Both the position numbers and the translations under genes were made by a program. The notes below the pieces were generated by a model. The model was given only the letters and a program-made list of their open reading frames with translations. It ran no database searches and was not told the origin of the DNA. Shown here piece after piece: positions 2,586-17,296 of a stretch of DNA of 64,000 bases. The stretch's first letter is position 1. Each line of letters starts with the position of its first letter. Source of the stretch: an archaeon. GTDB taxonomy: Archaea > Nanobdellota > Nanobdellia > Pacearchaeales > GW2011-AR1. The stretch covers positions 8,484-72,483 of the forward strand of contig JBDROH010000022.1 in assembly GCA_043810285.1 (NCBI GenBank), read 5' to 3'.

Positions 2586-4475
2586 ATGTGGTCATTATAC
2601 GAGCGAAAAAATGAAGATTCTAGTGATGGTGTAAACTTATTTGATTACTCTGGTGAAAAGCTCAAACCACTGAAATTCTCAAATGGAAAAACTCAAGAAG
2701 ACGTCGTCAAAGAAGTCCTCGAGACAATCAACGCCGGAAACAAACTAATTTTCATAAAAGGAATATGCGGAACTGGAAAGTCGGCAATTGCCCTAAATTT
2801 AGCAAGACACTTTAAAAAAACATCAATCGTCGTCCCAATAAAATCCCTCCAAGAGCAATACGAAAAAGATTACACTCAAAAAAAATTCATTATGAAAAAA
2901 GATAGTAATCCTTTAAAAATTGCAGTTATAAAAGGAAGAAATAATTTTAGATGTCCTTTTTCCGGAGAACGTTCCGATGACCCAGAACTTCCATGTACAA
3001 TCGAAATTAGAGAGAAAAATACTGAGCAACTTTTAAAATACATTGATATGAATGAAGCAGTAGAAAAAGAAAATTTCTCATCAGCGTCGGATGTCCGAAG
3101 AATGAACATTGCTCCTGCATGTCCTTACTGGGCACCACTAATGCCTTCAGAAATTAATCCAAAAGGGCTAAATGATGTCACCAAGAAAAAATATCAAGCA
3201 ATATGCGGAAAAGAATTTGCATTATTCTGTAGAAAAAAAGGATGTGGATATTACGACCAATACAAATCCTATATCGACGCTGACGTTCTTATTTTTAACA
3301 GTATGAAATATCAGATAGAAAGTTCAATAGGAAGAAAACCAAAAACAGATATAGATATTATAGATGAGTGCGACGAATTTCTTGATAGTTTTGCTAATGA
3401 ACGAAAAATTAATTTAAACAGATTACACTCGGCACTCTCAAATCTCCAACCAAACGACCAAGAAAAACGAACAAAAGTCAAGGAACTAATCAAAGAAATA
3501 AATAATATTTTGTTCAATCCTCCAACAATAGAAATTCAAAAAATAAACTCCTCCTCATTCCTCAACCTAATAGAAACAATTCTCAAAAACCCAAATCTTG
3601 CCGAAGACGAAGAACTCAGTTATTACAATACTGTAGTAGAAATTGCACGAACATTCGAAAATCTTCTAGATGAAACATATATTTCTATAGCTAAAATAGA
3701 AGAAGAAACCAAACAGAAAGGACTTTTTGGAACTAATTTCTCCAACGAGAAAACAGTAATACTAAATCTGGTTTCAATAAACTTAGCACAAAAAATTCAT
3801 GAACTAATTGAACAAAACAATATTCTAGTCATGATGTCTGGAACCCTTCATTCCGAACAAGTTTTAAAAGATATTTTTGGTTTAGAAGAATTTAAAATCA
3901 TCGAAGCTGAAATCGAAAGCCCTGGCATTATAAAAAAACAACGAACAGGTTTAGAAAAAAATTGTAACTTCTCCAACTTCTCAAATAAAACCATTACTAG
4001 AAAAATGTACCTTAAGATATTAGATATGTGTATGGCAAATGCCGAGCAACCAACTTTAGTTCACGTGAGTGCTTTCAAAGACCTCCCCACAGAAGAAGAA
4101 AATGCCGAATACAAATTTGAAAATTTAATCACTCAAGAAAAATTAAAGGAACTCCAATCAAGAGGAAATACTTCAGTAGATGAATTTACATCAGGTGAAG
4201 AAGATGTTCTATTCACCACAAAATGTTCGCGAGGAGTAGATTTTGCTGGAAACAAATGCAATTCTATTGTCATAACAAAATTTCCCTATCCAAATATTCA
4301 AGGACTCTTCTGGAAGATTCTCAAACAAGAACAACCTGAAAAATTCAAGGAGTTCTATATGGACAAAGCACGAAGAGATTTGATTCAAAAAATCGCAAGA
4401 GGGGTTAGATTCAAGGGAGATAAAGTTTCATTATGGAGTCCGGATATTAGAGTAATGAATGCTAACTTAAATTAA
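2586..4475 (+). CDS. Superfamily 2 helicase of the XPD/Rad3/DinG type, compact at 629 aa
   Basis: Walker A (GICGTGKSA), a Walker B/DExD-like motif (IIDECDEF), a Cys-rich insert after GRNNFRCPF consistent with an FeS domain, the Rad3-family VMMSGTL motif, and a C-terminal TKCSRGVDF motif resembling Rad3 motif VI. Confidence 0.55.
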   Translation: MWSLYERKNEDSSDGVNLFDYSGEKLKPLKFSNGKTQEDVVKEVLETINAGNKLIFIKGICGTGKSAIALNLARHFKKTSIVVPIKSLQEQYEKDYTQKKFIMKKDSNPLKIAVIKGRNNFRCPFSGERSDDPELPCTIEIREKNTEQLLKYIDMNEAVEKENFSSASDVRRMNIAPACPYWAPLMPSEINPKGLNDVTKKKYQAICGKEFALFCRKKGCGYYDQYKSYIDADVLIFNSMKYQIESSIGRKPKTDIDIIDECDEFLDSFANERKINLNRLHSALSNLQPNDQEKRTKVKELIKEINNILFNPPTIEIQKINSSSFLNLIETILKNPNLAEDEELSYYNTVVEIARTFENLLDETYISIAKIEEETKQKGLFGTNFSNEKTVILNLVSINLAQKIHELIEQNNILVMMSGTLHSEQVLKDIFGLEEFKIIEAEIESPGIIKKQRTGLEKNCNFSNFSNKTITRKMYLKILDMCMANAEQPTLVHVSAFKDLPTEEENAEYKFENLITQEKLKELQSRGNTSVDEFTSGEEDVLFTTKCSRGVDFAGNKCNSIVITKFPYPNIQGLFWKILKQEQPEKFKEFYMDKARRDLIQKIARGVRFKGDKVSLWSPDIRVMNANLN

Positions 4476-4486
4476 TTTATACCTCC

Positions 4487-4610
4487 AATCACCGACGACC
4501 CTACTCGAGCATATTCAAGTGATATCGTATCGTTTGCTTTATACTAATTCACACTCAGACTTTTTAATGGTTATCGGTCTACTTATAGGTGACAAAAGTT
4601 AGGGAGATAT
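4487..4610. repeat. Copy 1 of a roughly 120 bp conserved intergenic element. It has a CTACTCGAGCAT arm and a TCGGTCTACTT..GGTGAC arm
   Basis: Aligns with 5222-5345 and 11120-11240 and partially with 6670-6800. It lacks the full CCCCAACC core but retains ACCGACGACCCTACTCGAGC. Confidence 0.6.
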
Positions 4611-4614
4611 AAAA

Positions 4615-4761
4615 TTACTTCTGCTTCTTAAATAAAACAATTGTTAAAATAATGAAGAATATACCAGTTAATGAATACCAAATAAAGTTAGTTTCTGGTT
4701 CTGGAAAAAATAACAGAATAAGTAATCCAATAATTAATGAAATTATCCAAAGGTTTTTCAT
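4615..4761 (-). CDS. Small membrane protein, 48 aa
   Basis: MKNLWIISLIIGLLILLFFPEPETNFIWYSLTGIFFIILTIVLFKKQK. An archaeal TATA box TTTAAATA lies about 25 nt upstream on the minus strand. The promoter and first codons are duplicated at 9898-9975. Confidence 0.35.
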   Translation of the reverse strand: MKNLWIISLIIGLLILLFFPEPETNFIWYSLTGIFFIILTIVLFKKQK

Positions 4762-4812
4762 ATTCTAATCAAGGATGAAACTTATTTAAACTAAACGCCC
4801 CCAACCATTTGT
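4738..4812 (-). promoter_or_regulatory. Archaeal promoter module (TATA TTTAAATA, near-leaderless start) plus the 5' codons of the small membrane protein. Copy A of a roughly 75 bp duplicated module
   Basis: Minus-strand reading GGGGGCGTTTAGTTTAAATAAGTTTCATCCTTGATTAGAAT-ATG. A near-identical copy lies at 9898-9975. Confidence 0.55.
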
Positions 4813-4924
4813 TAGATAGTTTTGGTACAAGTGCGTGTAGATTAAATATGGGCACAAAATCCCTTGAGTATTTAACAAATTCTTTTTTAGTTAAATAGAT
4901 ATATCTAATTTTTCTTATAAAGAT

Positions 4925-5193
4925 ATGAAGATTTCAGAAAGATAAAAAAAATTGCGAAGAAGATTAAAACCGAGATTAAAGTATACAAGGGTGTTTTAAA
5001 CGACAAAAGAACTCCAAAATTAGAAAAAATACTTCTCGGAGCTGGAATTGCATATTCTTTAAGTCCTATAGATATTATCCCAGATTTTATACCTATCTTA
5101 GGTTATGTTGATGATATAATACTCGTCCCTTTGTTGATATTTATAGGGTTAAAATTTATTCCAAGGAAAATCATTAAGAAGTATCGTTGGTAA
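4925..5193 (+). pseudogene. DUF1232 (YkvA-like) membrane protein gene with an apparent frameshift in an A8 run. Either a pseudogene, a programmed shift or a sequencing error
   Basis: ATG at 4925 gives MKISER then a stop. The +1 frame after the A-run at 4944-4951 encodes KKIAKKIKTEIKVYKGVLNDKRTPKLEKILLGAGIAYSLSPIDIIPDFIPILGYVDDIILVPLL, which carries the DUF1232 DxIPDxIPxxGyxDD signature. That frame has no ATG. Confidence 0.35.
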
Positions 5194-5204
5194 AATAAAA
5201 TTCC

Positions 5205-5345
5205 ACCCTTGAATGTCACAAAAGTCCCAACCGGCTAAGACCCTACTCGAGCATCCTTACGGAATGTCATGTAGTTTGCTTTATTCTATTTGGTGGCTTT
5301 TCTTTTTAAATCTTGTCGGTCTACTTGTGGGTGACACCTCTTGGG
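5205..5345. repeat. Copy 2 of the conserved intergenic element, including the tRNA-Asp 3'-end core fragment CCCAACCGG
   Basis: CCCAACCGGCTAAGACCCTACTCGAGCATCCTTACGGAATGTCATGTAGTTTGCTTTAT...TTTAAATCTTGTCGGTCTACTTGTGGGTGAC aligns with copies 1, 3 and 4. Confidence 0.6.
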
Positions 5346-5385
5346 GAGAAGATATAAATAAACCTAAATCAAGAGATTATCTGAT

Positions 5386-5569
5386 GAAAATACCTGAACT
5401 TGAAAAAAAATACGGGAAGGAATTAATTGACAAAATTTTGAAGGGTCATTATTTGGATGGCTGTACTATTGCGATAGTTAATGGCGAAGACGATATTCCT
5501 GAAGGCGATATAAGATTGGCAATTAGAGAAATAAATGGGGATGAAATTGGTAACTGGGAATGGGATTAA
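5386..5569 (+). CDS. Small hypothetical protein upstream of fic. The ORF-track start at 5213 overlaps the repeat element, so a downstream Met is preferred
   Basis: MKIPELEKKYGKELIDKILKGHYLDGCTIAIVNGEDDIPEGDIRLAIREINGDEIGNWEWD. Lies on the same strand directly 5' of the Fic gene. Confidence 0.3.
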
Positions 5570-5706
5570 TTCATGCCTAAAAGGTTATATTTTTGTTATA
5601 TTTTCCTGCCTAAAAGGTTACAGTAACAAACTATCCCCTCGATAACACTGATAATATTTCCTGCCCAAATAGTAAGGTTTTTAAATAAAGAAAACCTGTT
5701 ATAATC

Positions 5707-6663
5707 ATGAGTCATATAGAAATTAAAAAAACAAAAAGTAATAATTACGCATCATTTGTAAAGAAGGTAGTTTTTATGGGAGAGTCATGCGTGATTAAGA
5801 AAAGCATGGGCCTGCAGTCTTCTACCCTTAACAAAGAAAAATTCTTATTGGATAATATTGACTTAATAACAAAAGAAGAATTTGATTTTAGAAAAAAATA
5901 TCTAAGCCAAATTATTTCCAAGATTTCTCATAATGAAAAATTACCTGAAAAAATAGAATTAGCTTCGATTAAATTAAATAATCTAATTGATGCCAAGGAT
6001 TGTCAGGAAGTGGTGGATATAGAATTTGCAAAGGAGTTTATTTTTAATTCAAATAATATTGAAGGTTCCAAAATTCCTCCACAGGCGGTTAGGGAAATTA
6101 TCGATAAGGGTGATACGAGATATTCGGATAAAAATGAAATTAAGGAAGTAAAGAATTCAATTGAGGCATTTAATTATTTGAAAAAATCATTTAAGTTTAA
6201 TATCCAGTCTATAAAAAAACTCTATCATGTTTTAACAAAAGATTTGGAAATGCAAAAAGGGGTTTCTTATCCGAGAGGTTTTAAGAAAGTTCAAAATGTT
6301 GTGGGGAATTCTATAACAACTGCTCCAGAAAATGTGGAGTCTGAGTTAATTGGTTTATTAAGGTGGTATAGAGAAAATAAAGGTAAAATTCATCCGTTAA
6401 TTTTGGCCTTTGAATTTCATAAGCGATATGAAGGTATACATCCTTTTTTAGATGGAAATGGGAGAACAGGAAGGCTGATTATGAATAAGATTTTGATGGG
6501 TAAGGGATACCAGCCTATAATCGTCTATAAGGAAAATAAGGAATCGTATTTTAATTCTTTGGCAAAAGTTAATGATGGAATGTCAAAAAAATATTATCAG
6601 TTTATGTTGGAACAAACTAGAAAGAGTTATGATTTTTTAGAAAGTGTTATAAAAAAATATTAA
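5707..6663 (+). CDS. fic: Fic/Doc (Fido) family protein, a putative AMPylating toxin
   Basis: Canonical Fic motif HPFLDGNGRTGRLIMNKIL, matching HPFx[D/E]GNGRxxR. Confidence 0.85.
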   Translation: MSHIEIKKTKSNNYASFVKKVVFMGESCVIKKSMGLQSSTLNKEKFLLDNIDLITKEEFDFRKKYLSQIISKISHNEKLPEKIELASIKLNNLIDAKDCQEVVDIEFAKEFIFNSNNIEGSKIPPQAVREIIDKGDTRYSDKNEIKEVKNSIEAFNYLKKSFKFNIQSIKKLYHVLTKDLEMQKGVSYPRGFKKVQNVVGNSITTAPENVESELIGLLRWYRENKGKIHPLILAFEFHKRYEGIHPFLDGNGRTGRLIMNKILMGKGYQPIIVYKENKESYFNSLAKVNDGMSKKYYQFMLEQTRKSYDFLESVIKKY

Positions 6664-6669
6664 GGATCA

Positions 6670-6800
6670 ATTTACTCCTTGAATGACGGATAAATCCGAA
6701 ACACTACATTCTTGTCGTTTAGTCGTTTTTCCATTGGTGAGTGTGCGATGGAGACGATATTTAAATCTTGTCGACCACTAAGGGGTGACGGAAGTTAAGA
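6670..6800. repeat. Copy 4, degenerate, of the conserved intergenic element
   Basis: Shares CCTTGAATG at its 5' end and TTTAAATCTTGTCGACCACTAAGGGGTGAC at its 3' end with copy 2. Confidence 0.5.
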
Positions 6801-6809
6801 AAAATATAT

Positions 6810-7331
6810 TTATTCTTCCAGTATATTTTCTATTAATGTTAAAAATTCTTTAGCCCTTTCTAAAGAAGTTTGAGCCTTTGATTTTTTAATATTTTCAGTA
6901 GTCTCATATTGAAATGTAGATCTTTTAACTTTTTCAAAACCATATTTTGTCAAATAATTATCACTAACAGATAAAGCTTCATCTTTTCCTATCTCATAAG
7001 CTTTCAAAAGATGATTTTTTATTTTATGTCTGCCTTGCACAATTAAACCCTCATTTACTACTTGATGGACAATTTCATGTTTTGTTTTGTATCCTAGTTT
7101 GTATAAATATGCACAAGCCATATAGAACATGGAATAATAACTACTCACAACCACCCATAGTGACGAAGAATTATTCTTGAATAATAGGTTGGCGACGCTT
7201 AGGCTCTCTCTTGCATTTCTCAAATAGGTCTCATAAATTAATGTTTTAGGCTTGTCTATTTCCGTTATTTTTCCGTCTCTCAAATAATTTTTGAAATTAT
7301 CTTCCGCTTGTTTTATTCTTTTTTCATCCAT
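6810..7331 (-). CDS. HEPN-domain protein, putative toxin of a HEPN-MNT pair
   Basis: Alpha-helical 173-aa protein with an R-x(4-6)-H-like motif (RHKIKNH). Overlaps the upstream MNT gene by 19 nt, the typical arrangement. Confidence 0.55.
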   Translation of the reverse strand: MDEKRIKQAEDNFKNYLRDGKITEIDKPKTLIYETYLRNARESLSVANLLFKNNSSSLWVVVSSYYSMFYMACAYLYKLGYKTKHEIVHQVVNEGLIVQGRHKIKNHLLKAYEIGKDEALSVSDNYLTKYGFEKVKRSTFQYETTENIKKSKAQTSLERAKEFLTLIENILEE

Positions 7332-7909
7332 TCTGAAATTAAATTATAGTAATTCTCTTTCCCATAAAGTATAATGTTGTTTTTAATTATTTCGTTACCA
7401 AGATTATTTCCTTTCTTTTCTATCATTGAGGTAAATTCTTTTGAGGTAAATTCTTGTATTTCTAAGTTCAAAGATAATAGGCTTAGTTTCTCATTTAATA
7501 TTTTGGATTTAGATTCATTATCTAGAATTATGCAGATATCAATATCTGAATTCTTTGTGTTAGTTTTTTTAATATATGAACCAAATGCCAATACAGTTAG
7601 AAATGGGTAGTTTAATTCTTTGATATATTTTCTTATAACTTTTAAATTTAAATTTTTCGAGAAAAACTCTTCAGTTCTTTTTTCTTCTATTGAAAGAGTT
7701 TCTATATTGTTATTTTGATTAAATTCGATAAGATAGGAGTTTCCTTGCTTGCTTTTTAAATATGTTTTAGGATTTATTTTAGAGAGTGCTTGAGAAGTGT
7801 TTTTATAATCTGCTTTCAGTTTTTGAGAAATCTCCATGATAGAATGTGGAGATTCTTTGTTTTCGATTAAAAATTTCAATATCTTTTCTTTTAGGGTATA
7901 TTTTACCAT
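7313..7909 (-). CDS. Minimal nucleotidyltransferase (MNT), putative antitoxin partner of HEPN
   Basis: LAFGSYIKKTNTKNSDIDICIIL matches the GS-x(9-13)-D-x-D polymerase-beta-like nucleotidyltransferase signature. Confidence 0.7.
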   Translation of the reverse strand: MVKYTLKEKILKFLIENKESPHSIMEISQKLKADYKNTSQALSKINPKTYLKSKQGNSYLIEFNQNNNIETLSIEEKRTEEFFSKNLNLKVIRKYIKELNYPFLTVLAFGSYIKKTNTKNSDIDICIILDNESKSKILNEKLSLLSLNLEIQEFTSKEFTSMIEKKGNNLGNEIIKNNIILYGKENYYNLISEWMKKE

Positions 7910-8022
7910 GATATTATGGTAGTATATACCTTATTTAAATCTTGTGTTTTTGTCAAAACCCTCTCAACCGCCTCCTGCCCTTAATATGTCGACTGACTGT
8001 TGGGATTATCTCTTTTTCTTCT

Positions 8023-8177
8023 TAATTAAAAAATAAATCAATGCTCCACCAGCTAAAATCAAAAATATAGTCTAAAATGATGTCAGAATTTTCTTTGGAT
8101 ATATCTGGAATGCCGTTTTTTACAGATTCTTTCCATAAAAGATATCTTTCTTCATGCTGATATGGGTCAACTTTCAT
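8023..8177 (-). pseudogene. Remnant N-terminal fragment of a second tyrosine integrase
   Basis: MKVDPYQHEERYLLWKESVKNGIPDISKENSDIILDYIFDF is similar to the N-terminus of the intact integrase at 12644 (MEKRDPYKHKERYFRWLKENANGIGGISLRNSSLILAYLYDM). It ends after about 50 aa. Confidence 0.4.
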
Positions 8178-8471
8178 TAATTTTAGAAGGATTCGCAAAT
8201 AAAAAGGTCATTGTATAAATGTTGTATTTTAGACATAGTATCCTATTACTTAAGGAGATATAAAAATGTTTAGAAATCGCCCCAACCGCCGTGACTAGAT
8301 GAGTGTGTCTTTGGTAGGTGGATGGAATTTATTACCGTTTATTAAAATCAATTCCAATATCTTCTAAGATTTTAAGGGATTTTATAGTCTTGAAATAATA
8401 AACTTGTGCATCACTTCTCTTTTTAAAATATAAATAAAAACAAAATCCTGACAGGATCATCATAAACGATT

Positions 8472-9875
8472 TTATTTATGCTTTCCAAATATCTCTCTAA
8501 CATAAACGAACAAAACATCCATATTCATAGCCCACCGAAGAATAGTGCCCCTAAAAAACCCATATTTCTTTTCTTTAACAGGCTGAGAATAATCAAAAGT
8601 TTTATACCCAAATCCCCCAAAATATTTCTTAACATAACAATTTAATCCTGCTTCAACACGATATTTATATTTAAAATACTTAGGAAGAGTCTCCCAAACA
8701 ATTCTTCTCATTGCTCTTTCTCCAGAATTCAAAGCAATGAGACGAATCGTTTTTTGCATAAAATTACTCCTTAATCCAATAAACATATTGAAATCACCTC
8801 TTTTAACTGGTTCAATTATCCCTTTAATTATCTCTAAATTTAATCCTATCAGATCAGCATCACAAAAGAAAATAATATCTGCATCAGTTGAAAACACCCC
8901 TCTTTCCATCGATTCCGCCTTTCCAAGATTTTTCTCATTTTTAAAATATCTAACCTTTGGAAATTTTCTTACTATCTCATATGTATTATCCCTTGATCCA
9001 TCGTCAACAACAACAATTTCATCTATGGACTTGGATTTACTAATGACTTTTAGAACACTCCTTATTCTCTTGGACTCATTAAAAGAAGGTATTATTGCAG
9101 CAACCTTATTTTCATCTTTTTTCCCAAAAAGATTATTCTTTTCAATGAAATCTCCTATCACTCCACAGATTTCATCATCGTATTCTGAAAAAAACAAATT
9201 ATGAACTTTTGTATTAAAAATTTTCTGTTGTTTAACAAAAGATTTTACCTTTTTATTTATATCTCTTATAGAAGCATAATGACCAATTGGATCCAAATAT
9301 GAATGAATTGAAAGAATGGGACAATTTATATTTTCAAATTTTTCTCTCAATTTTTGAGCAGCTTGTTTTGAGATAAAAAATCCATTTACATGCATAAAGT
9401 CATAACTAAAAGCATTTTTTCTCTTTTCTTTTTCATTTTCACATCGATTTTTCCCCCAATATTTTTTATACTTTCTTAAAACCCCTATTCCCCACACATT
9501 AAAAGGAAATTTAAAAAGATAAGGTGGACAAACATCAAAGACACCAAGTATTGGATATTCTGAAGAAAAAGTTAATGCGAGCATAGCACCAAAACTAATC
9601 CCTCCAAGGATTATTCTTCTCCCTTTTCTAATGTCTTTTTCTAATTCTCTTTTAATTTGTTTAAAAAAATCTTCATATTCAAGATTATCTAGATCTTTTA
9701 CATTAGTTCCATGGCCACGTAAAAGAATAATTTTCACATTAGCATTAAATTTTTTATTCAAATAAGCTGGTAAATTGTTGAAATCTGTTGGGCTTCCAGT
9801 ATAGCCATGAATAAGAAAGAACTCCCGATTCGAATTAGCCTTCAATTCTATTGTTTTTACTTTTTCTTCAACCAT
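8472..9875 (-). CDS. Fusion protein: N-terminal alpha/beta-hydrolase (esterase/lipase GxSxG) and C-terminal family-2 glycosyltransferase
   Basis: N-terminal HGYTGSPTDF and GGISFGAMLAL (GxSxG). C-terminal AAIIPSFNESKRIRSV...VVVDDGSRDNT (GT2 DxD region). Confidence 0.65.
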   Translation of the reverse strand: MVEEKVKTIELKANSNREFFLIHGYTGSPTDFNNLPAYLNKKFNANVKIILLRGHGTNVKDLDNLEYEDFFKQIKRELEKDIRKGRRIILGGISFGAMLALTFSSEYPILGVFDVCPPYLFKFPFNVWGIGVLRKYKKYWGKNRCENEKEKRKNAFSYDFMHVNGFFISKQAAQKLREKFENINCPILSIHSYLDPIGHYASIRDINKKVKSFVKQQKIFNTKVHNLFFSEYDDEICGVIGDFIEKNNLFGKKDENKVAAIIPSFNESKRIRSVLKVISKSKSIDEIVVVDDGSRDNTYEIVRKFPKVRYFKNEKNLGKAESMERGVFSTDADIIFFCDADLIGLNLEIIKGIIEPVKRGDFNMFIGLRSNFMQKTIRLIALNSGERAMRRIVWETLPKYFKYKYRVEAGLNCYVKKYFGGFGYKTFDYSQPVKEKKYGFFRGTILRWAMNMDVLFVYVREIFGKHK

Positions 9876-9897
9876 TTTTTAGTAATCCAATACTTAA

Positions 9898-9975
9898 TGA
9901 AACTATCCAAAGGTTTTTCATATTCTAATCAAGGATGAAACTTATTTAAACTAAACGCCCCAACCACTGTTTACT
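9898..9975 (-). promoter_or_regulatory. Copy B of the duplicated promoter/leader module. It encodes a 17-aa truncated MKNLWIVSLSIGLLKNG upstream ORF that overlaps the start of the GT2 fusion gene
   Basis: About 70 of 75 nt identical to 4738-4812, including the TTTAAATA box. The TGA of the upstream ORF overlaps ATGGTTGAAG of the downstream gene. It ends in the att-core fragment CGCCCCAACC. Confidence 0.5.
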
Positions 9976-10037
9976 TCTAGTAGTGTTTGTTTACACCAAT
10001 TATATAAGATAAGTAAAATTCTTACTAATAATCAATT

Positions 10038-10361
10038 TTAATGTTGCATTGCAAGAATATTTTCTATTTCTTCTAGAGTATTATTTGTCGTTCTTAAAAG
10101 ATATTTAAATGCTTTAATATATTTTTCTTTCCCAGAAGTTTTAATAGCAACTTTCCTTTCTTCTTCATTATCAAAAGCAGAATTAATATATTCTTCATCT
10201 TTTAATACAATACCAAAATAAATTGGGTTCATTCCAAAAAATGTTCTCCATCTATTGTTTAACATGCATACATCACCAGGCTTACTACCTCTCTTAAATT
10301 TACTAAAATTCTTAATCTCTCTTTGTAGCGCCTCTTTGATAAACTTGTCCTGATTTTTCAT
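10038..10361 (-). CDS. Hypothetical protein, 107 aa, co-oriented immediately downstream of the NYN gene
   Basis: Clean ORF with no recognisable motif. Lies 60 bp downstream of the NYN gene on the same strand. Confidence 0.4.
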   Translation of the reverse strand: MKNQDKFIKEALQREIKNFSKFKRGSKPGDVCMLNNRWRTFFGMNPIYFGIVLKDEEYINSAFDNEEERKVAIKTSGKEKYIKAFKYLLRTTNNTLEEIENILAMQH

Positions 10362-10421
10362 ATTGATAATTATATTTAGTAAAGGATGTCTGAGTTTTTA
10401 TAGTTTTAGAATAATTTGAGA

Positions 10422-10958
10422 TTAGGATAATTTAATTTCTTCAATAAATTTTTCGTCTATTTTTATTGTTTTATAAGCTACTTTCTTTAGATGATAGGAT
10501 ATTGTTTTGCTGTTTCCTATTGCTACGTAGTTTATTTTTTTCGAAAATCTTTCTTGTGCTGCTTTAACTGCTCCTGAAAAATCTCCATCATTTGATATAA
10601 GAAATGCTTCGTCAAATTCGTTTGCTTGTGCGTCTAAAACTAAATCTAGTGCTAGGTTGACATCTGTCGCTTTTTCAACAAAGTATTCTTCTCCATCCTT
10701 TTTCCGTTTTTCTAATCTTCCAAAGATTATTTTTAGATTTTTGATTTCTCTAAATTTATCAAAAAAACTTTGTTGTTTTGCGTACATTTTAGAATTTTGA
10801 GTTTGGTCTACAGGTGCAATGTAATAATTTATTTTTACTAAATCATTTTTATTAGTAAGTTTTTTACAGAATTCTCCCATATCTATTTTACAATTAAATC
10901 TTTTCTTTATCGAAAAATAGAAATTGCTTCCATCAATGTAGACAATAGATTTTTTCAT
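10422..10958 (-). CDS. NYN-domain (PIN-like) predicted RNase
   Basis: N-terminal VYIDGSNFYF and later LISNDGDFSGAV are the two acidic-residue motifs typical of NYN/LabA-like nucleases. Confidence 0.6.
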   Translation of the reverse strand: MKKSIVYIDGSNFYFSIKKRFNCKIDMGEFCKKLTNKNDLVKINYYIAPVDQTQNSKMYAKQQSFFDKFREIKNLKIIFGRLEKRKKDGEEYFVEKATDVNLALDLVLDAQANEFDEAFLISNDGDFSGAVKAAQERFSKKINYVAIGNSKTISYHLKKVAYKTIKIDEKFIEEIKLS

Positions 10959-11119
10959 ATAATTAAAAAAATCATGGGGTCCGTGAAGATCCCATGGAGT
11001 TTATTGGAGTTAGATATAGTTTAATGTTTAAAAATGTTATGGTTGTGTATTTTTGTGTATTTTCTCGTTGGTAAATCTAAAAATTATGCGTTTTGTCGAC
11101 GTTGTTTTTATTTTTTACG

Positions 11120-11240
11120 ACCCGCCCCAACCGTCCACGACCCAAGTCGAGCATCCTTACGGGATGTCTTGTCATTTGCTTTATACTTGTTGATGGATTT
11201 TATTTAAAAATGTTGTCGACGACTTTGGGGTGACGAATTG
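11120..11240. repeat. Copy 3 of the conserved intergenic element, with the best-preserved tRNA-Asp 3'-end core CGCCCCAACCG
   Basis: CCGCCCCAACCGTCCACGACCCAAGTCGAGCATCCTTACGGGATGTCTTGTCATTTGCTTTATAC...TTGTCGACGACTTTGGGGTGAC. Confidence 0.6.
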
Positions 11241-11311
11241 ATTATTTACAATAGAAAGAAGCTTCTATTGGGAATAGAAACATTTATAAAATATAATCTT
11301 CTGAAATAGAC

Positions 11312-12526
11312 ATGATAACAAAGGAAGTTTTAATGAAAGTAATAAAAATACAAAGAGAGTGGATTAATACAATTGATAAGGGGATAATTAGGGAAAATTT
11401 CCATAACATAAAATTAAAAGAATCTTTCGCGTTGGTTATTTCGGGGATTAGAAGGTGTGGTAAAAGTACTCTTTTGAACCAAATTCTGAAAGGGCAGAAA
11501 AATTTTTATTATTTAAATCTTGAAGATCCTCGACTAGAGGGATTTGAGTTAAAAGATTTTAATAAAGTTGATGAAATTTTTCAAGAGTTATATGGTCCTA
11601 ACGGAACTTATTTCTTTGATGAGATTCAAAATATTGAAAAATGGGAGAAATTTATTAGATTTTTAGTAGACAGAAAAAACGAGATAGTAATAACGGGCTC
11701 AAATGCTTCCTTGTTAAGTCAAGAACTTGGGACAAGACTTACAGGAAGACATATCAGTTACGAATTATTCCCATTTTCATACTTAGAGTTTTTAGAGTTC
11801 TTTAAGCAAAAACCAAATGAAAAATCTTATTCAGAATATCTCTATGAAGGGGGTTTTCCAGAATATTTGAGGGAAAAGGATATGACTGTTTTGCATGAAT
11901 TATTAAAAGATGTTTTAATGAGGGATATTGCAAATAGATTCGGAATTAAGAATACGGAAACATTGAGAAAATTGGCTATCTATTTACTGAGTAATGTTGG
12001 AAAAGAATTTTCATACAATTCCCTTAAGAAAATGTTGGAAGTTAAATCTGTCCAGAGTATCATAGACTATGTTTCTTTTTTGGAGAATGCTTATCTGATT
12101 TTTACAATACCTAAATTCAGTTATTCTTATAAAAAACAACAAGTTAATCCCAAAAAAGTTTATTCAATAGATAACGGATTATCCTATGCTAACTCGGTTT
12201 CTTTTTCAAAAGATAAAGGTAAGATGTTAGAGAATAATGTTTTTTTGAATTTAAGAAAAAGGTATAAAGAAATATTCTATTTCCAAAAAGATAAAGAGTG
12301 TGATTTTGTGGTTAAGGACAGAGAAAAAGTCCTCCTCGCAATCCAAGTTTGTTATGAATTTAATGATGAAAATCAAGATAGAGAAATAAATGGATTACTT
12401 GAAGCTTTGAATGAATTAAAGCTTAAGACTGGATTAATTTTGACGTATAATCAAGAAGATGAATTTGAAATCGATGGGAAGAAAATAATTCTTAAGCCAG
12501 TTTGGAAGTGGTTGATGGAAGAGTAA
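11312..12526 (+). CDS. AAA+ ATPase of the archaeal AAA_14/DUF4143 type (COG1373-like)
   Basis: Walker A GIRRCGKSTLLNQIL, Walker B-like YFFDEIQNI, and a family-typical length of about 400 aa. Confidence 0.7.
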   Translation: MITKEVLMKVIKIQREWINTIDKGIIRENFHNIKLKESFALVISGIRRCGKSTLLNQILKGQKNFYYLNLEDPRLEGFELKDFNKVDEIFQELYGPNGTYFFDEIQNIEKWEKFIRFLVDRKNEIVITGSNASLLSQELGTRLTGRHISYELFPFSYLEFLEFFKQKPNEKSYSEYLYEGGFPEYLREKDMTVLHELLKDVLMRDIANRFGIKNTETLRKLAIYLLSNVGKEFSYNSLKKMLEVKSVQSIIDYVSFLENAYLIFTIPKFSYSYKKQQVNPKKVYSIDNGLSYANSVSFSKDKGKMLENNVFLNLRKRYKEIFYFQKDKECDFVVKDREKVLLAIQVCYEFNDENQDREINGLLEALNELKLKTGLILTYNQEDEFEIDGKKIILKPVWKWLMEE

Positions 12527-12643
12527 TCGTTTAATGCCTGGGATGAATTGCAGCAACTTGCCGGAAAACTTCTAAATAAAGATTTCAAAAAACATACCAA
12601 TAAGGTAAGAAAATTAGTTCTTTTTAAAAGTAATTAATATGGT

Positions 12644-13774
12644 ATGGAAAAAAGAGATCCATACAAACATAAAGAAAGATACTTCAGATGGTTAAAAGAA
12701 AATGCAAATGGGATAGGGGGGATTTCTTTAAGAAATTCTTCTTTAATCTTGGCTTATTTGTACGATATGCAAGAAGGATTAAATGTTTCAGTAAAATCAA
12801 AAAAAGGTCCAAGAAGTTATACAAGACTAAACAACATAATCCAAAGAATGGTTTTCTTGGCGAAGAAATTTGAAGAAATTTACAGATTAGAAGATATGTC
12901 TCAAATAGATGAAAACATTCTGCATAATTATTTCAATGGAGTAAAAGATGGGACTATCAGAAGATTTGATGGAGAAATATACAGGGACCCTGCAAATCTG
13001 GTAAAGATTTTCAAAGCTTTTTGGCACTGGTGGCAAAAAGTTAACAGAAAGGAAGGAAATGGAATAAAAGACATTACAATAGACTTAGATGCCACTTGTG
13101 ATAAGCCTAAATGGGTTTATATGACCGAAGAACAAATCGCCAAACTTTGTCAAAAAGCTTCTTTTGACTATAATGTCTTGATAACTTTTCTTTATGACTC
13201 TGGAATAAGGGCCCCAACAGAACTTTTAAACATAAGAATCTCGGACTTTCAAAACGAGTTCAGGGAACTGACTATAAGGGAAGAAGTAAGCAAGACTTTT
13301 GGAAGGAGAATCAAATTAATGTTCTCTTCTGAATTAATAAAAAAATATGTGGACAAAAAAGGGCTTTCAAAAGAAGACTATCTTTTCTCATTAAGTCCTT
13401 ATACAATAAATTCTAATCTTCAAAAACTGGTAAAAAAAGTTTTGGGGACAGAAGTAAGTCCTGCAGGACAAAAATACTCTGAACTCACCATGTATGATTT
13501 CCGACATTGCTCATGTTGTTACTGGCTACCAAAATATAAATCTGAATCAGGTCTAAAATATCGTTTTGGTTGGAAAAAGTCAGAAAGGATCCATTATTAT
13601 TCTGAGATGCTTGGGATGCAAGACACTATTTCTGAAGAAGATTTATTTGAAGATACTGGTGGGATGGTCTTCAAAAGAAAAGTGAATAAGATTTACACAG
13701 ATAATAGGCTACAAGAATCTAGGTTAGACTTTCTTGAGAGAAAGATTCAAGAGTTAGGTAAGAAAGTAACTTGA
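12644..13774 (+). CDS. Tyrosine recombinase/integrase
   Basis: Box I-like LYDSGIRAPTELLNIRISDF and box II-like MYDFRHCSCCYW (H-x-x-R) followed by Tyr residues. The gene ends 140 bp from the 3' end of the tRNA-Asp gene. Confidence 0.7.
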   Translation: MEKRDPYKHKERYFRWLKENANGIGGISLRNSSLILAYLYDMQEGLNVSVKSKKGPRSYTRLNNIIQRMVFLAKKFEEIYRLEDMSQIDENILHNYFNGVKDGTIRRFDGEIYRDPANLVKIFKAFWHWWQKVNRKEGNGIKDITIDLDATCDKPKWVYMTEEQIAKLCQKASFDYNVLITFLYDSGIRAPTELLNIRISDFQNEFRELTIREEVSKTFGRRIKLMFSSELIKKYVDKKGLSKEDYLFSLSPYTINSNLQKLVKKVLGTEVSPAGQKYSELTMYDFRHCSCCYWLPKYKSESGLKYRFGWKKSERIHYYSEMLGMQDTISEEDLFEDTGGMVFKRKVNKIYTDNRLQESRLDFLERKIQELGKKVT

Positions 13775-13913
13775 GTCCTCCAAAAAATACTTCAATGCCC
13801 CGTCAAAAATCTCGACGCTCCGAACGGACAAAGACTTGAGTTCTCAAGAGAAGTAAATGTATTCGTCGTCGACAAAAACTATAAAACTTCAATCCACCGT
13901 CGGTAAAAACCCA

Positions 13914-13985
13914 CGCCCCAACCGGGGATTGAACCCGGATCTCGACCGCGACAGGGTCGTGTACTAACCACTATACTATTGAGGC
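13914..13985 (-). tRNA. tRNA-Asp (GTC)
   Basis: Cloverleaf read by hand. Acceptor GCCTCAA/TTGGGGC, D arm GTAT-AGTGGTTA-GTAC, anticodon stem CGACC/GGTCG with loop CTGTCGC (anticodon GTC), T arm CCGGG-TTCAATC-CCCGG. 72 nt. Confidence 0.85.
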
Positions 13986-14034
13986 TTGTAATTTAATTGA
14001 AGAATTGATTTAAAAGACTTACTATTTTTTCTTT

Positions 14035-14988
14035 GTTGTGCAAGCAAGTGACATATGTCACCCCCTAAAACAATAGCTCAAAATCATTATAAATTTCATC
14101 TGGCGTTTTATTATCCAAGCTCATATGTGGTCTAAAATGATTATAGTTCATTCTCCAGAGCTCAACATCTTCATTGCAAAACTTAAACTCTCTTTTGAAA
14201 GTTTGAAACAATCTCTCAACTTTTCCTTGCGTTGTTGGGCTATGAACTGTTCCTCTAATGTGTTCTATTCCCCTCTTTCTACATCTTCTGTCAAATCTTG
14301 AATGTCTGCTTTTCAAACCATAAGCTGAACCATTATCAGTTAGAATTTGTTTTGGCTTGCCATAAATTTTAATTAACTTATCGATTAAATTTATCACAAT
14401 ATCCGTCGTAACAACGTTAGTTACAGCAAAAGCTAAACTTTTTCTTGAGCAATCATCGACGACAGAAACTACCCACTTATCTTTAATTTTTTGTTGGCTA
14501 TGATCAATCTGCCAAAGAGAATTAGGACGTTTTCTTTGAAAACGAATATATTTTATTCTTTTCTTTTTTCTTTTAGTTGGTTCAGTTAGTTTGTGTTTGT
14601 TTAGAATTTTATTAATAGATGTATGGCTTAAGTTTACAAAGTTTTCAATTTTTTCAGCCCCAAAACCAGTTTTCTCTCTTATAGAAATAATCTTATTTTC
14701 TATCTCTTTAGTTATTTTTCTATGAATCATTTTAGGACGTCTGGACTTATCATTCAAATCCCAATTATCATTTGTATCTAATTCGTGTACCCATCTTTTC
14801 AAAGTTCGATTAGTTATTTCGAATTTATGTTTTACAAAAAGTATTTTTCTACATTGGTTATATGAATGTCCCTCCATTTTTAGTTTAAAAAATATCTTTC
14901 TGATTTCTTCTTTTTTCATAAAAAGAATCAAAAAACACTGCGGAACTAATTTTCGGTGCTAGTGACATATGTCACTGGATTGCACACT
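14035..14988. mobile_element. Insertion sequence of about 950 bp with 18-19 bp imperfect terminal inverted repeats and a palindromic core AGTGACATATGTCAC at both ends
   Basis: Left TGTGCAAGCAAGTGACATATGTCAC (14035-14061) and right AGTGACATATGTCACTGGATTGCACA (14962-14988) flank a single transposase ORF. Confidence 0.75.
14065..14931 (-). CDS. DDE transposase with integrase core (rve) domain and N-terminal HTH, IS481/IS3-like
   Basis: WQIDHSQQKIKDKWVVSVVDDCSRKSLAFAVT....ILTDNGSAYG shows the D..D..E core pattern. An N-terminal helix-turn-helix region is present. Confidence 0.8.
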   Translation of the reverse strand: MILFMKKEEIRKIFFKLKMEGHSYNQCRKILFVKHKFEITNRTLKRWVHELDTNDNWDLNDKSRRPKMIHRKITKEIENKIISIREKTGFGAEKIENFVNLSHTSINKILNKHKLTEPTKRKKKRIKYIRFQRKRPNSLWQIDHSQQKIKDKWVVSVVDDCSRKSLAFAVTNVVTTDIVINLIDKLIKIYGKPKQILTDNGSAYGLKSRHSRFDRRCRKRGIEHIRGTVHSPTTQGKVERLFQTFKREFKFCNEDVELWRMNYNHFRPHMSLDNKTPDEIYNDFELLF

Positions 14989-15208
14989 ATTTTTTCTTTG
15001 TTTTCTTTTTTGTCTTATTTTCTGAAATCTTTGCAACTTCTACTCGGAGTTTTTCAATTTCTTCTAAGAGTGTTGCGTGATTTAGACTAAGGTGTTGTAT
15101 TTTCTCATGAATATCTGAAAAGGCATCGTTAAGCATTAACATATCTTTTTTCACATACCCGAAACTCGCAGAGATATCTTTTTCAATTTGTTTAATTGAT
15201 TTTTCCAT
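14987..15208 (-). CDS. Small coiled-coil protein (hypothetical)
   Basis: 73-aa ORF with heptad pattern and a Lys-rich tail. Weak support. Confidence 0.25.
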   Translation of the reverse strand: MEKSIKQIEKDISASFGYVKKDMLMLNDAFSDIHEKIQHLSLNHATLLEEIEKLRVEVAKISENKTKKKTKKK

Positions 15209-15302
15209 AATATTCCATATATTTTATATTTATAAACTTTTGTAACTTTAAAATTGCGACAAAAAACGGGAATGATTAAAAAGAACTAATCTCTGTAACT
15301 TT

Positions 15303-15578
15303 ATGGATAATCTCTTACAACGTTTACCTTCAGTTCATTCTTGTAATACTGTTTTGGAAGAGAGAAAAATTCAGGTAGATGGGAGAATCTTAAATTTGAA
15401 TCCCTATCCAGTTGATTATTGTCCGAAATGTAATATCTACAAGTATAATGATATCGAATCTATGAATCCAAGATTTGTTGGAAGGTACATAACTCGGTTG
15501 CAAGAAGAAACAAATCAACTAACAAATAAATCTATGTTTAACATCAAATTTAGATCTAGTCCAAACAAAAAGCCTTAA
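15303..15578 (+). CDS. Hypothetical small protein with a CxxC pair
   Basis: 91-aa ORF upstream of the U32 gene containing YCPKCNIY. Confidence 0.3.
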   Translation: MDNLLQRLPSVHSCNTVLEERKIQVDGRILNLNPYPVDYCPKCNIYKYNDIESMNPRFVGRYITRLQEETNQLTNKSMFNIKFRSSPNKKP

Positions 15579-15602
15579 AATGTTATTTTTTGTTCTTATT
15601 TT

Positions 15603-16793
15603 ATGAAATCAGATTACGAACTCTTAGCCCCTGTTGGAGATTTTAAGAATTTACATGCGGCGGTAGTAGCGGGAGCTGATGCAGTATACTTTGGGATTAA
15701 AGGATTTAATATGCGGGCTAGCGCAAAGAATTTCAGCGTTAGGGACTTAAAAAGAATTCGACGGATTTGCAATGATTCCTCTAGAAAGCCTAAAATGTAT
15801 TTAACCTTGAACACAGTAGTTTATGACAGAGAATTGAAGAAACTTGAGAAAATTGTAAAAGCGGTTAAGGGGAAAGTTGATGCGATTATTTGTTGGGATA
15901 TGTTGGTGATTGTATTATGTAAAAAATATGGTGTTCCATTTCATGTTTCTACTCAAGCATCTATTTCTAATGTTTCTGCCGCTAAAATTTATAAGAATCT
16001 TGGAGCTAAAAGAATAGTTCTTGCTAGAGAATTGAATTTAGAGCAGATTAAAAAAATATCCAATGTGATTGATATTGAGTGTTTTTGTCATGGAGCAATG
16101 TGCGTCGCAATTTCAGGAAGATGTTTTACTTCGCAATTTGTTAAAAGGCTTTCGGCTAATCGTGGACAGTGTGTGCAACTTTGTCGACGAGCTTGGGAAA
16201 TTAAAGATGATGAAGGAAATAAGTTGGTTCTGAATAATAATCGGGTGATGTCCGCGAAGGATTTGTGTACATTGCCTTTTATCGAGAATATGAAGAAAGC
16301 CGGAATTAAATCATTTAAAATTGAAGGAAGAAATCGAAGTCCAGAATATGTTTATGCAGTAGTATCTGAATATAGAAATGCTTTAGATAATAATTTAAAT
16401 CGAACTGAGATTATTGAAGGGATTGCTCGGTTGAAGAAAGTTTACAATAGAGGATTCAGTTCCGGGTTCTATTTGAAAATGCCGACGGCAGATGACTTTT
16501 CGTTTAGTGAAAATGGAGAACAAGAAGAAAGGAAAGAGTTTGTTGGACGAGTTGAGAGGTATTGGCCAAAGGCTGGAGCAGCATCGGTTAAAATGTTTGC
16601 TGGTTGTTTGAATGTTGGCGATAATGTGTATTTAATTTCGAAAGATGCCCCAATTCAGAGAGTTGTTGTTAAGAGTATTGAATTCGAAAGCAAGGATGTC
16701 AAGGTCGCTAAAAAGGGTCAGGAAATTGGAGTTAATTTTGGTGTTGTAGTAAAACGTGGCGACGAGGTTTATGTTATTAGGTCTGCTTCTTAA
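15603..16793 (+). CDS. Peptidase U32 family protein
   Basis: N-terminal ELLAPVGDFKNLHAAVVAGADAVYFG and the CHGAMCVAISGRCFTS Cys motif are characteristic of U32. Confidence 0.8.
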   Translation: MKSDYELLAPVGDFKNLHAAVVAGADAVYFGIKGFNMRASAKNFSVRDLKRIRRICNDSSRKPKMYLTLNTVVYDRELKKLEKIVKAVKGKVDAIICWDMLVIVLCKKYGVPFHVSTQASISNVSAAKIYKNLGAKRIVLARELNLEQIKKISNVIDIECFCHGAMCVAISGRCFTSQFVKRLSANRGQCVQLCRRAWEIKDDEGNKLVLNNNRVMSAKDLCTLPFIENMKKAGIKSFKIEGRNRSPEYVYAVVSEYRNALDNNLNRTEIIEGIARLKKVYNRGFSSGFYLKMPTADDFSFSENGEQEERKEFVGRVERYWPKAGAASVKMFAGCLNVGDNVYLISKDAPIQRVVVKSIEFESKDVKVAKKGQEIGVNFGVVVKRGDEVYVIRSAS

Positions 16794-17295
16794 AACTTAA
16801 AATAGTTAAAAAAAGAATTATCCCTCCGAAAATAAACCCTCCAATGATATCAGTTAACCAATGAACTCTTAGATAAATTCTCGTAAAACCTACTAAAAAA
16901 ATTGTTAGAATAGCAATTAGTGAGGATATTAATTTTATTTTCTTTGATTTGTTTTTCGAGAATAGATAAACTATTAGTCCAAAGAAAACAACAGCCATTG
17001 TTGAATGTCCGCTCGGAAACGAGAAACCAATTTCTTGAACTATTTGATTTAATGGACGAGTTCTTTGGAAAATTTCCTTGGATACTTTTATTAATATGCC
17101 CGTTAAGAGTATTGCCGAGGTAAAAATGATTCCTTTTTTCTTAGATGATTTAACGTAGAGGTATATTGCAATAATTAGAGAAATTGCAATTAAAGTTATT
17201 GGATCAAAAATTAATGCTAAGACTTTAGAGAAAATTGTTAATTGGGAAGTTTGGATTGATTGCATAAATATATTTGTCACGGTGTCGATTAGCAT
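16777..17295 (-). CDS. PAP2-family phosphatase (membrane)
   Basis: Motifs KxxxxxxRP (RTRPLNQ), SFPSGHS and RVHWLTDIIGG, with multiple TM helices. Confidence 0.8.
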   Translation of the reverse strand: MLIDTVTNIFMQSIQTSQLTIFSKVLALIFDPITLIAISLIIAIYLYVKSSKKKGIIFTSAILLTGILIKVSKEIFQRTRPLNQIVQEIGFSFPSGHSTMAVVFFGLIVYLFSKNKSKKIKLISSLIAILTIFLVGFTRIYLRVHWLTDIIGGFIFGGIILFLTILSFKKQT

Positions 17296-17296
17296 C

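Follow-up and report, generated by a model that had tools for sequence, protein, structure and literature searches.

Tandem accretion of mobile elements at tRNA genes is a known process, the described cases being Islander arrays, tycheposons and tandem elements of archaea. It is well known in other microbes and has not been described for the DPANN archaea. Streptococcal integrative and conjugative elements (ICEs) provide a related case, in which integrase-less cis-mobilizable elements with the same attachment (att) sites accrete beside the integrase-bearing element. The island described here is an instance of tandem accretion at a tRNA gene. It occupies 9.4 kb (4482-13924) of a 64,000-nucleotide stretch of contig JBDROH010000022.1 from an archaeon of the Pacearchaeales (the whole stretch is referred to as the window), and lies between a helicase gene and a tRNA-Asp gene. 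The island likely arose by serial site-specific integration at this tRNA-Asp, the newest element lying next to the tRNA, with subsequent loss of the integrase from the older elements. An earlier inspection of the letters alone (the sequence-only reading) had proposed repeated site-specific integration into the end of tRNA-Asp, and this is supported by conserved attachment-site arms, by the layout around the closest relatives of the integrase (the A-type relatives described below), by a variant tRNA at locus L044, by G+C content and by a different, much smaller insert at this tRNA in a related species.

In the Islander definition a tyrosine integrase is directed at the tRNA gene's 3' end; the tRNA is regenerated, displaced 3' fragments in direct orientation show where the island ends, and tandem arrays result from successive integrations (PMC4383910). 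The Islander survey reported 125 tandem arrays of at least two members and four of at least three, and every member needs its own integrase and fragment (PMC4383910). Segment 11123-13924 of the island has an intact tRNA, a displaced direct 3' fragment and an integrase inside, as an Islander element does. The island as a whole departs from the tandem-array rule, since only the newest member has an integrase; its members, at 0.3-2.8 kb, are also very small, and the block of identity spans just 11-13 nt. In the tycheposons of Prochlorococcus new arrivals push older elements inward, partial tRNAs and fragmented integrases are found, and the cargo is adaptive or defensive (10.1101/2020.12.28.424599). 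By description the island resembles them in its tRNA-targeted tyrosine recombinase, its tandem members split by partial tRNAs and its degraded remnants. Tycheposons have replication modules (primase and helicase) or resemble phage-inducible chromosomal islands, whereas no such Pfam domain is present in any open reading frame (ORF) of the island, and the host here is a DPANN archaeon.

In archaea, tandem integration, loss of the integrase after integration and cryptic elements down to 2.6 kb have been reported (PMC8371274, PMC6563490). The island shares with archaeal pNOB8-type elements an R…YxxR…Y motif, an unsplit integrase, a tRNA target and tandem integration. It differs from the reported archaeal elements in that its integrase belongs to a DPANN-dominated family of more than 2,000 members with two fixed layouts relative to the tRNA. 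As with cis-mobilizable elements, integrase-less att-flanked segments accumulate at one site; conjugation genes are not present here.

The + strand from 13914 reads CGCCCCAACCGGGG, which is the reverse complement of the tRNA-Asp 3' end. The attachment core consists of the last 11 nt of the tRNA (13914-13924, + strand reading CGCCCCAACCG). The same 11-mer is present exactly at 8278-8288 and 11123-11133, corresponding to the same position of tRNA-Asp, and a second 11-mer that also maps to the tRNA-Asp end, ACGCCCCAACC, is present exactly at 9955-9965. A maximal exact match search found these three to be the longest matches to the tRNA region in the window; all are on the + strand, left of tRNA-Asp and at the very end of the tRNA. 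Further out are the 9-mer CCCAACCGG at 5226-5234, the core with a 1-nt insertion (CGCCCCCAACC) at 4796-4806 and a degenerate leftmost core at 4484, 8 nt past the helicase stop codon. At a junction near 6708 the core is gone and both flanking arms are kept, and a possible degenerate core lies at 7963. Outward from tRNA-Asp the cores score 11/11, 10/11, 11/11, lost, 9/11, one insertion and degenerate, so that their integrity drops roughly with distance.

At up to one mismatch CGCCCCAACCG has 4 matches where 0.07 are expected, a number reached in 0 of 100 shuffles; the shorter word CCCCAACC occurs 5 times against 0.94 expected, counting both strands. The core copies all lie on the + strand within 4799-13923 (9.1 kb), between the helicase and the tRNA, and the rough probability of such clustering on one strand is 2.6e-5. 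The sequence-only reading had described the same-orientation repetition of this core with coordinates off by only 1-4 nt, and had asked for an alignment of tRNA-Asp against the island. Every copy it had named was located, and the sites at 4484, ~6708 and 7963 add to its list. It had also said that matches no longer than expected by chance would count against it, and the matches found exceed expectation as given above. The composition of the island is foreign: its G+C content is 29.8% compared with 34.2% elsewhere, below that of all 80 windows of the same size (minimum 31.7%).

Repeat finding showed that the cores sit inside longer repeats and are not independent short motifs. The first of these, D1, consists of the core plus ~115 nt (~125 nt in total) and has the form …GACCCTAGTCRAGCATCC…GTTTGCTTTAT…TTTAAATCTTGTCG…GGGTGAC. 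It has four copies in the window, at 4482, 5223 and 11122 and in part at 6758, which score 2.4e-29 (4482), 2.8e-34 (5223), 2.6e-32 (11123) and 6.5e-6 (partial copy) with an nhmmer profile. D1 carries a TATA-like TTTAAAT, which faces the cargo-integrase operon in small complete elements. Its alignment holds 14 copies from at least eight contigs, and it was found in L003, L009, L012, L016, L017, L032, L111, L133 and L154, among others (L-numbers denote loci compared in other genomes or contigs). To the left of the cores two kinds of arm occur, an integrase-side arm (…CCGTCGGTAAAAACCCA followed by the core) and R2 (CACCCATGAAAGTCACAAAAGTCC-N4-CGC followed by the core). R2 is found at nine junctions, at five of which 22-24 of its 24 positions are kept; the window copy at 5204-5227 matches at 22/24 where 0 are expected by chance, and a weaker R2-like copy lies at 6680-6708. 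A third arm, D3, follows the core at 8278 and is common to L003 and L017. D1, R2, D3 and the integrase-side arms recur in other DPANN genomes, always adjoining a core.

Three other identities were considered for D1. As a decayed tRNA-Asp with a promoter it fails, the alignment beyond the core being no better than shuffles (z -0.9 to -0.07); Rfam returned only the real tRNA-Asp in 4000-15000, with no second tRNA. As a structured RNA it has no covariation support, and the alignment of the 14 copies folds at -3.1 kcal/mol. Its GGGGTGAC is not the end of an insertion sequence, the copy at 14057 belonging to the inverted repeat of a separate and unrelated insertion sequence at 14038-14985.

The relatives of the integrase fall into two layouts. 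Those at least 73% identical (A-type; the closest are 73-84% identical) share the order seen in the window, which is core with D1, cargo, integrase, arm and core. The last core of L003 and of L016 is part of an intact tRNA-Asp on the strand opposite to the integrase, and L009, L012, L017 and L154 have more than one core or D1 arm in direct orientation. The minimal A-type element is ~2.7 kb and carries one cargo, which is MNT-HEPN in L003, L009 and L154, RelA_SpoT in L017 and L153 and AAA_14 in the window. Relatives ~55% identical (B-type) have the reverse layout, with the tRNA, ~90 nt and then the integrase on the same strand. This arrangement was found in 24 genome loci, at tRNA-Asp in 13 and at Glu, Gly, Ser, Gln, Met or Leu tRNAs in the rest, and R2 corresponds to the stretch of the B-type integrase-side arm nearest the core. 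Distal repeats of B-type elements within 10 kb were seen in L044 only. There the tRNA-Asp ends in the variant CGGCGTGGGCG, exactly this variant is carried by two downstream direct repeats of 13-14 nt, and a D1 arm precedes the second of them. Both cores of L009 share a C-to-T variant, CGCCCTAACCG.

The island holds one intact integrase and one 41-codon remnant, and tblastn found no others. The remnant, which reads from 8177 to 8055, shares 83% identity with the B-type protein P0018 over residues 1-41 of the latter (E 9e-17) and only 50% with the resident integrase. It lies on the tRNA-Asp strand, 100 nt from the core at 8278, a spacing typical of B-type loci, and its alignment with L033 and L026, two intact loci running from tRNA-Asp to the integrase, extends from the core to codon 41. 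Because this remnant is B-type, at least two integrase lineages have used this tRNA-Asp site. The truncated second integrase N-terminus that the sequence-only reading placed at 8023-8177 is real, lying at 8055-8177 (-), and belongs to a different subfamily; the single driving integrase of that reading does not hold, at least one module having come with the other subfamily. L017 holds a similar remnant cut at another codon, so the two truncations look like independent deletions.

Under serial integration each element would have brought an attachment site with a core of 11-13 nt identical to the tRNA end. The tyrosine integrase would have recombined this site with the tRNA, so that the tRNA was rebuilt and a displaced copy of the core remained at the element's far side, and every new arrival would have moved the earlier elements away from the tRNA. 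The newest element (11123-13924) is complete, with core and D1, an AAA_14/DUF4143 cargo, the integrase, its arm and the tRNA. The six or seven older modules would have lost their integrases by deletion while retaining cargo and pieces of the arms. We infer this order of events, and the loss by deletion, from the arrangement of the modules, and the resident integrase is presumably active. The features of the island and its flanks are as follows.

2586-4475: helicase with ResIII and Helicase_C_2 domains (Pfam), left flank
4482-4806: module a, with degenerate core and D1, 48-aa membrane ORF (-) and core
4482-4609 (+): leftmost junction and distal boundary of the island, core CCTCCAATCACCG and D1, 8 nt past the helicase stop
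4615-4806 (-): 48-aa membrane ORF (4615-4761) and its promoter, then core CGCCCCCAACC (4796-4806), right end of module a; 4721-4806 is the first copy of the repeat D2
4796-5236: module b, with DUF1232 probable pseudogene, R2 and core
4927-5193 (+): DUF1232 ORF of module b (Pfam DUF1232 1.2e-14; three-frame translations)
5204-5351 (+): b/c junction, with R2 at 5204-5227, core CCCAACCGG at 5226 and D1 at 5223-5351
5226-6708: module c, with D1, 61-aa ORF, Fic and R2-like arm, core lost
5384-6663 (+): 61-aa ORF (5384-5569) and Fic (5707-6663; Pfam Fic 4.6e-16) of module c
6680-6798 (+): c/d junction, with R2-like arm at 6680-6708, core lost, right part of D1 at 6758-6798
6708-8288: module d, with partial D1, HEPN (-), MNT (-), possible core at 7963, B-type remnant (-), arm and core
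6810-7909 (-): MNT (7313-7909; Pfam NTP_transf_2 2.6e-10) and HEPN (6810-7331; Pfam HEPN 7.6e-8) of module d
7963-8010 (+): tentative degenerate core CTCAACCGCC and right-end fragment of D1 ATATGTCGACTGACTGTTGGGAT, weak, found by eye and below the nhmmer profile length
8055-8277 (-): remnant of a B-type element, with arm and integrase promoter at 8178-8277 and the first 41 codons from 8177 down to 8055
8278-9965: module e, with D3, hydrolase-GT2 (-), D2 copy and core
8278-8322 (+): core (11/11, exact 11-mer) and D3 arm CCGTGACTAGATGAGTGTGTCTTTGGTAGGTGG, left end of module e
8472-9875 (-): fusion of an α/β-hydrolase and a GT2 glycosyltransferase, module e (Pfam Glycos_transf_2 2e-22, Hydrolase_4 2e-9)
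9881-9966 (+): second copy of D2 at the e/f boundary, with a truncated 5' part of the 48-aa membrane ORF, its promoter and core 9955-9965
9955-11133: module f, with 107-aa ORF (-), NYN (-), arm remnant and core
10038-10361 (-): 107-aa ORF adjoining NYN, its partner
10422-10958 (-): NYN-domain protein of module f (Pfam NYN 1.3e-18; PADLOC HEC-09 5e-26)
10959-11122 (+): right-arm remnant of module f without integrase, containing TTTTGTCGACG
11123-13924: module g (2.8 kb), with D1, AAA_14/DUF4143, integrase, arm and tRNA-Asp
11123-11240 (+): core (11/11, exact 11-mer) and D1 arm (D1 profile), left end of module g
11312-12526 (+): AAA_14/DUF4143 ATPase, cargo of module g (Pfam 3e-36 and 3e-24; PADLOC PDC-S01 6e-113)
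12644-13774 (+): integrase, A-type, intact, 376 aa, tyrosine recombinase with R189, Y284-x-x-R287, W310 and Y318/Y319
13775-13913 (+): integrase-side arm of the newest element, with CGTCGACAAAA and CCACCGTCGGTAAAAACCCA directly before the core
13914-13985 (-): tRNA-Asp(GTC), anchor of the island (ARAGORN; Rfam tRNA, 63 bits; sequence)

Several of these features have close counterparts elsewhere. The arm of the newest element (13775-13913) is 92% identical over 49 nt to that of L003, is similar to that of L154 and was aligned with those of L003, L009 and L012. The D1 of the b/c junction is 88% identical over 110 nt to L154 and the leftmost D1 is 85-88% identical to the L154 copies, while the fragment at 6758-6798 covers D1 positions 84-124 and, over 33 nt, shares 97% identity with the D1 of L111 and L144. 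The D3 arm at 8278-8322 is 89% identical over 45 nt to L003 18862-18818, similar arms being found in L017 and L003. In module f, TTTTGTCGACG is the reverse complement of the integrase-side arm motif and has the position expected from L012, where the order is integrase, NYN (-), arm and core. Since the NYN gene of L012 sits between integrase and arm, module f looks like an element minus its integrase.

The cargo genes lie on both strands, and the gene content given by the sequence-only reading (Fic, HEPN-MNT, a GT2 fusion, NYN with a partner and an AAA ATPase) was confirmed with Pfam. The AAA_14/DUF4143 protein is 79% identical to a protein of the L012 array; the window NYN has 70% identity with the NYN next to the L012 integrase and 66% with that of the L017 array. 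The MNT-HEPN pair is 55-76% identical to the pair beyond the L044 repeats. Fic matches PADLOC PDC-S04 (3e-38) and SoFic (4e-27), and MNT matches PDC-M05A/PDC-S09; the 107-aa partner of NYN had no Pfam, PHROG or PADLOC match. Fic, MNT, NYN and AAA_14 thus all match PADLOC defence or defence-candidate models, mostly of candidate families, and by this criterion the island is a cluster of putative defence or toxin genes. A homologue of the 48-aa membrane ORF, 79% identical, occurs in L030 without an adjacent core. No start codon lies in frame with the DUF1232 ORF (the ATG at 4925 is off by one base), which is probably a pseudogene, the alternative being a sequencing error. In L002 339-1552 (a Logan contig of SRR27925880 with the same element) the AAA_14/DUF4143 gene is split into ORFs of 117 and 271 aa, owing either to a variant with a frameshift or to an error of assembly.

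Pfam gave no match for the integrase even at E <=10. It matches the phrog_1 integrase (1.4e-12) and the archaeal XerA 4a8e (E 0.004, box I and box II aligned); a PDB profile search beyond XerA added only spurious polyubiquitin matches. It has 2,191 homologues, many of which contain PF00589, and those 82-84% identical carry precomputed weak PF00589 matches. Identity within the family is 53-84% and the named homologues are nearly all from Woesearchaeota, Pacearchaeota or Nanoarchaeota. Twenty family members share R189, Y284, R287, W310, Y318 and Y319 without exception, and Y284-D-F-R287 of the R…YxxR…Y motif is invariant across the family. An AlphaFold2 model has a mean predicted local distance difference test score (pLDDT) of 72, and the top 41 PDB matches found by Foldseek are all tyrosine recombinases, 19 of them with E <=0.001, at low template modelling (TM) scores of 0.27-0.31. 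The nucleophile would be Y318 or Y319, in a segment with pLDDT <50. Judged by PHROG, XerA, its homologues and the predicted fold, the protein is a divergent tyrosine recombinase, and the intact tyrosine integrase that the earlier inspection placed at 12644-13774 stands.

A pNOB8-type integrase is defined by the R…YxxR…Y motif and a gene that is not split by integration (PMC8371274). By this definition, which concerns motif and gene rather than comparison with the pNOB8 sequence, the resident integrase would be of pNOB8 type. Its ORF is complete and ends 139 nt before the core, and the integrases of L003 and L016 are likewise intact. SSV-type features were not found, the gene being intact and the motif YxxR rather than KxxR; the fragment at 8055-8177 adjoins the core with its start codon side and not with its broken end, contrary to an SSV-type split. 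No special affinity to IntI was seen, PDB sequence searches giving just XerA, and IntI (2a3v) being no better a match by fold than Xer, Cre or lambda Int, at 13% identity. Of the families that had been suggested for comparison, the pNOB8 type would fit by its definition, and the SSV type and IntI do not. No description of the integrase family or of its arm architecture was found in the literature searched, whose coverage was incomplete; a 2021 review of archaeal recombinases has 0 mentions of DPANN (PMC8371274).

Several observations weigh against serial integration as the origin of the island. Three boundaries (4484, ~6708 and 7963) are without a clean core, and just one integrase remnant is found among six or seven integrase-less modules. 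These modules keep well-conserved arms, which serial integration followed by decay does not lead one to expect unless selection on the arms is assumed; selection for the tRNA may shield the tRNA-proximal arm, and D1 may owe its retention to a promoter function. The integrase lacks a Pfam match of its own and the segment with its presumed nucleophile tyrosine is modelled at low confidence. No circular form of the A-type element was found, nor was an empty site or a presence/absence polymorphism of single modules found for this species. Simple serial integration also does not account for the duplication D2, an 87-nt repeat at 4721-4807 and 9881-9966 whose copies are 96.5-98% identical. D2 could have been left behind by aberrant excision and re-integration, or could stem from recombination inside the array. 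The repeated segment takes in the core and the promoter and extends 14 codons into the 48-aa membrane ORF, and the pair is far more alike than any other repeat pair in the island.

Comparison with related genomes, which the sequence-only reading had called for, gave a different and much smaller insert at this tRNA in the L003 species; the neighbourhood there is rearranged and does not provide a clean empty site. Look-ups of the exact integrase, helicase and 73-aa neighbour proteins returned no arrangement other than that of the window, which either had or lacked the insertion sequence described below. A metagenome scan with the D1 pattern returned 48 loci, of which ~18 are true D1 arms and ~30 unrelated chance matches, many near tRNA-Ser; no circular modules were present among the ~18. 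The candidate circular form L011 begins and ends in D1, these being two different D1 copies, and was rejected. No relative of the integrase was found among IMG/VR viral contigs.

A separate observation concerns L089 (1-5031 of JAHJSH010000025.1, from a Nanoarchaeota metagenome-assembled genome, MAG), whose ends overlap by 136 nt and which therefore probably represents a circle of ~4.9 kb. Encoded on it are a B-type integrase, whose gene is frameshifted as assembled, and a 346-aa ORF that resembles a reverse transcriptase and contains the motif YVDD; the contig is a candidate free form of this element family. In L003 (8153-18860) a PAP2-SNase-S10-tRNA-Ser block lies on the opposite side of the tRNA-Asp element compared with the window, the conserved ORF known from the 5' side of tRNA-Asp stands right next to the distal core, and reverse-orientation cores are found at 14343 and 18853; this arrangement suggests inversions between attachment cores. 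In L012 the right-hand core is immediately followed, at 12543-18029, by the gene for an 1,828-aa protein that contains a family-B DNA polymerase domain; no tRNA was detected at this core.

The sequence-only reading had also compared the island functionally to an integron-like cassette array. The resemblance consists of small, mostly single-operon modules beside one tyrosine recombinase gene at one site. Unlike an integron, the island has neither attI nor attC hairpins, its boundaries being direct repeats of a tRNA-derived core with arms of ~35-115 nt; its genes lie on both strands, a TATA-like box is present in each D1 arm in place of one shared promoter, the recombination site lies within a tRNA gene and the integrase is not IntI-like. 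The comparison thus fails at every integron feature tested (attI/attC, orientation, promoter and IntI).

The most probable of the alternatives is a cassette system. The integrase-less modules could be non-autonomous cassettes, each with a complete two-sided attachment site (R2, core and D1), excised and re-inserted in trans by the resident integrase, an explanation that we regard as rather unlikely. It fits with the presence of R2, core and D1 together at junctions in at least six genomes, with the 22-24/24 match of R2 at five junctions, and with arrays of one integrase and several direct-orientation cores or D1 arms in the window, L009, L012, L017 and L154. Arrays without an integrase within the 11-13 kb fetched are found in L133 and L109, the integrase-less modules are small (0.3-1.7 kb) and mostly of a single operon, and the integrase-bearing backbone exchanges single cargoes. 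Against this, no near-identical integrase-less module was found in two contexts, the cargo being 35-79% identical to that of other loci, and no circular module contig was found. R2 runs into a truncated integrase in the window and in L017, cut at different codons, which looks like independent deletion, and several window junctions are degenerate or core-less. Mobilization in trans is placed low because selection can also explain the arms and because no circular or relocated integrase-less module was found. It is correspondingly doubtful that the tRNA-Asp locus of DPANN archaea (Woesearchaeota, Pacearchaeota and Nanoarchaeota) is a counterpart of the integron, at which promoter-bearing defence or toxin cassettes are captured, excised and reshuffled in trans. 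If this were so, the array would be a shuffled library of defence and toxin genes and an archaeal functional analogue of integrons or of cis-mobilizable elements.

It is very improbable that D1 is a promoter or leader copied locally in front of defence operons, its match to the tRNA being carried along by chance and no integration having taken place. The TATA-like box of D1 and its direction towards the operon speak for such an origin, and D2 shows that local copying happens in the island. However, the cores at 8278 and 9955 are not joined to D1, and the D1 copies at 5223 and 4482 are nearer to L154 (85-88%) than to the other window copies (66-81%); for the copy at 11123 the two similarities are comparable. 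The core follows the host tRNA in L044 and L009, and is therefore not just part of a repeated promoter element. Integrases of two lineages also stand at the expected ends. Local duplication is largely refuted by the L044 core, the B-type remnant and the D1 similarities. The least probable explanation of all is that short GC-rich words recur by chance in an AT-rich genome, for although the exact matches are just 8-11 nt long, it is ruled out by the shuffles (none of 100 reaching the 4 copies found against 0.07 expected), by the restriction of the cores to one strand and 9.1 kb, and by the longer conserved arms in which every core is embedded.

The helicase on the left of the island has a counterpart of 75% identity in the L003 species, where the surrounding genes differ, and is therefore probably a chromosomal XPD/DinG-like gene. 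It also matches the PADLOC model of the type IV CRISPR-associated DinG helicase (1e-43). Just upstream of it, at 1415-2431, is a protein with a GGDEF diguanylate cyclase domain (Pfam 2.7e-37), which is expected to be unusual in a DPANN archaeon. On the 5' side of tRNA-Asp a 73-aa ORF is a conserved neighbour of this tRNA in many DPANN genomes, while the 3' side is variable.

An insertion sequence (IS) of 948 bp (14038-14985) lies 52 nt upstream of tRNA-Asp. It contains an rve/DDE transposase at 14065-14931 (-) and 24-nt terminal inverted repeats (GTGCAAGCAAGTGACATATGTCAC and GTGCAATCCAGTGACATATGTCAC), and is flanked by a 17-bp direct duplication, ACTATTTTTTCTTTGTT. The IS is absent from NCBI contig JAZDEA010000012.1 of the same MAG, and its junction with the 73-aa ORF recurs in short contigs from three other samples; it is therefore polymorphic.

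Tandem accretion and decay at tRNA genes are already well known, so serial integration at this tRNA-Asp extends the known picture and does not change it. Almost nothing is known of mobile elements in DPANN archaea, whose genomes are tiny and whose life is spent on other cells. The attachment architecture, comprising an 11-nt core, D1, R2, D3 and an integrase-side arm, is legible from the DNA alone. The recombination system is testable in vitro and could perhaps be made into a genetic tool for a group that has none, and the arms and cores are a simple marker for horizontally acquired genes in DPANN genomes. One conserved integrase family of more than 2,000 members appears to target tRNA genes, that of tRNA-Asp above all, in DPANN archaea. 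At ~2.7 kb, the smallest elements of this family have just one toxin or defence operon as cargo, and repeated hits would turn the tRNA locus into a defence island.

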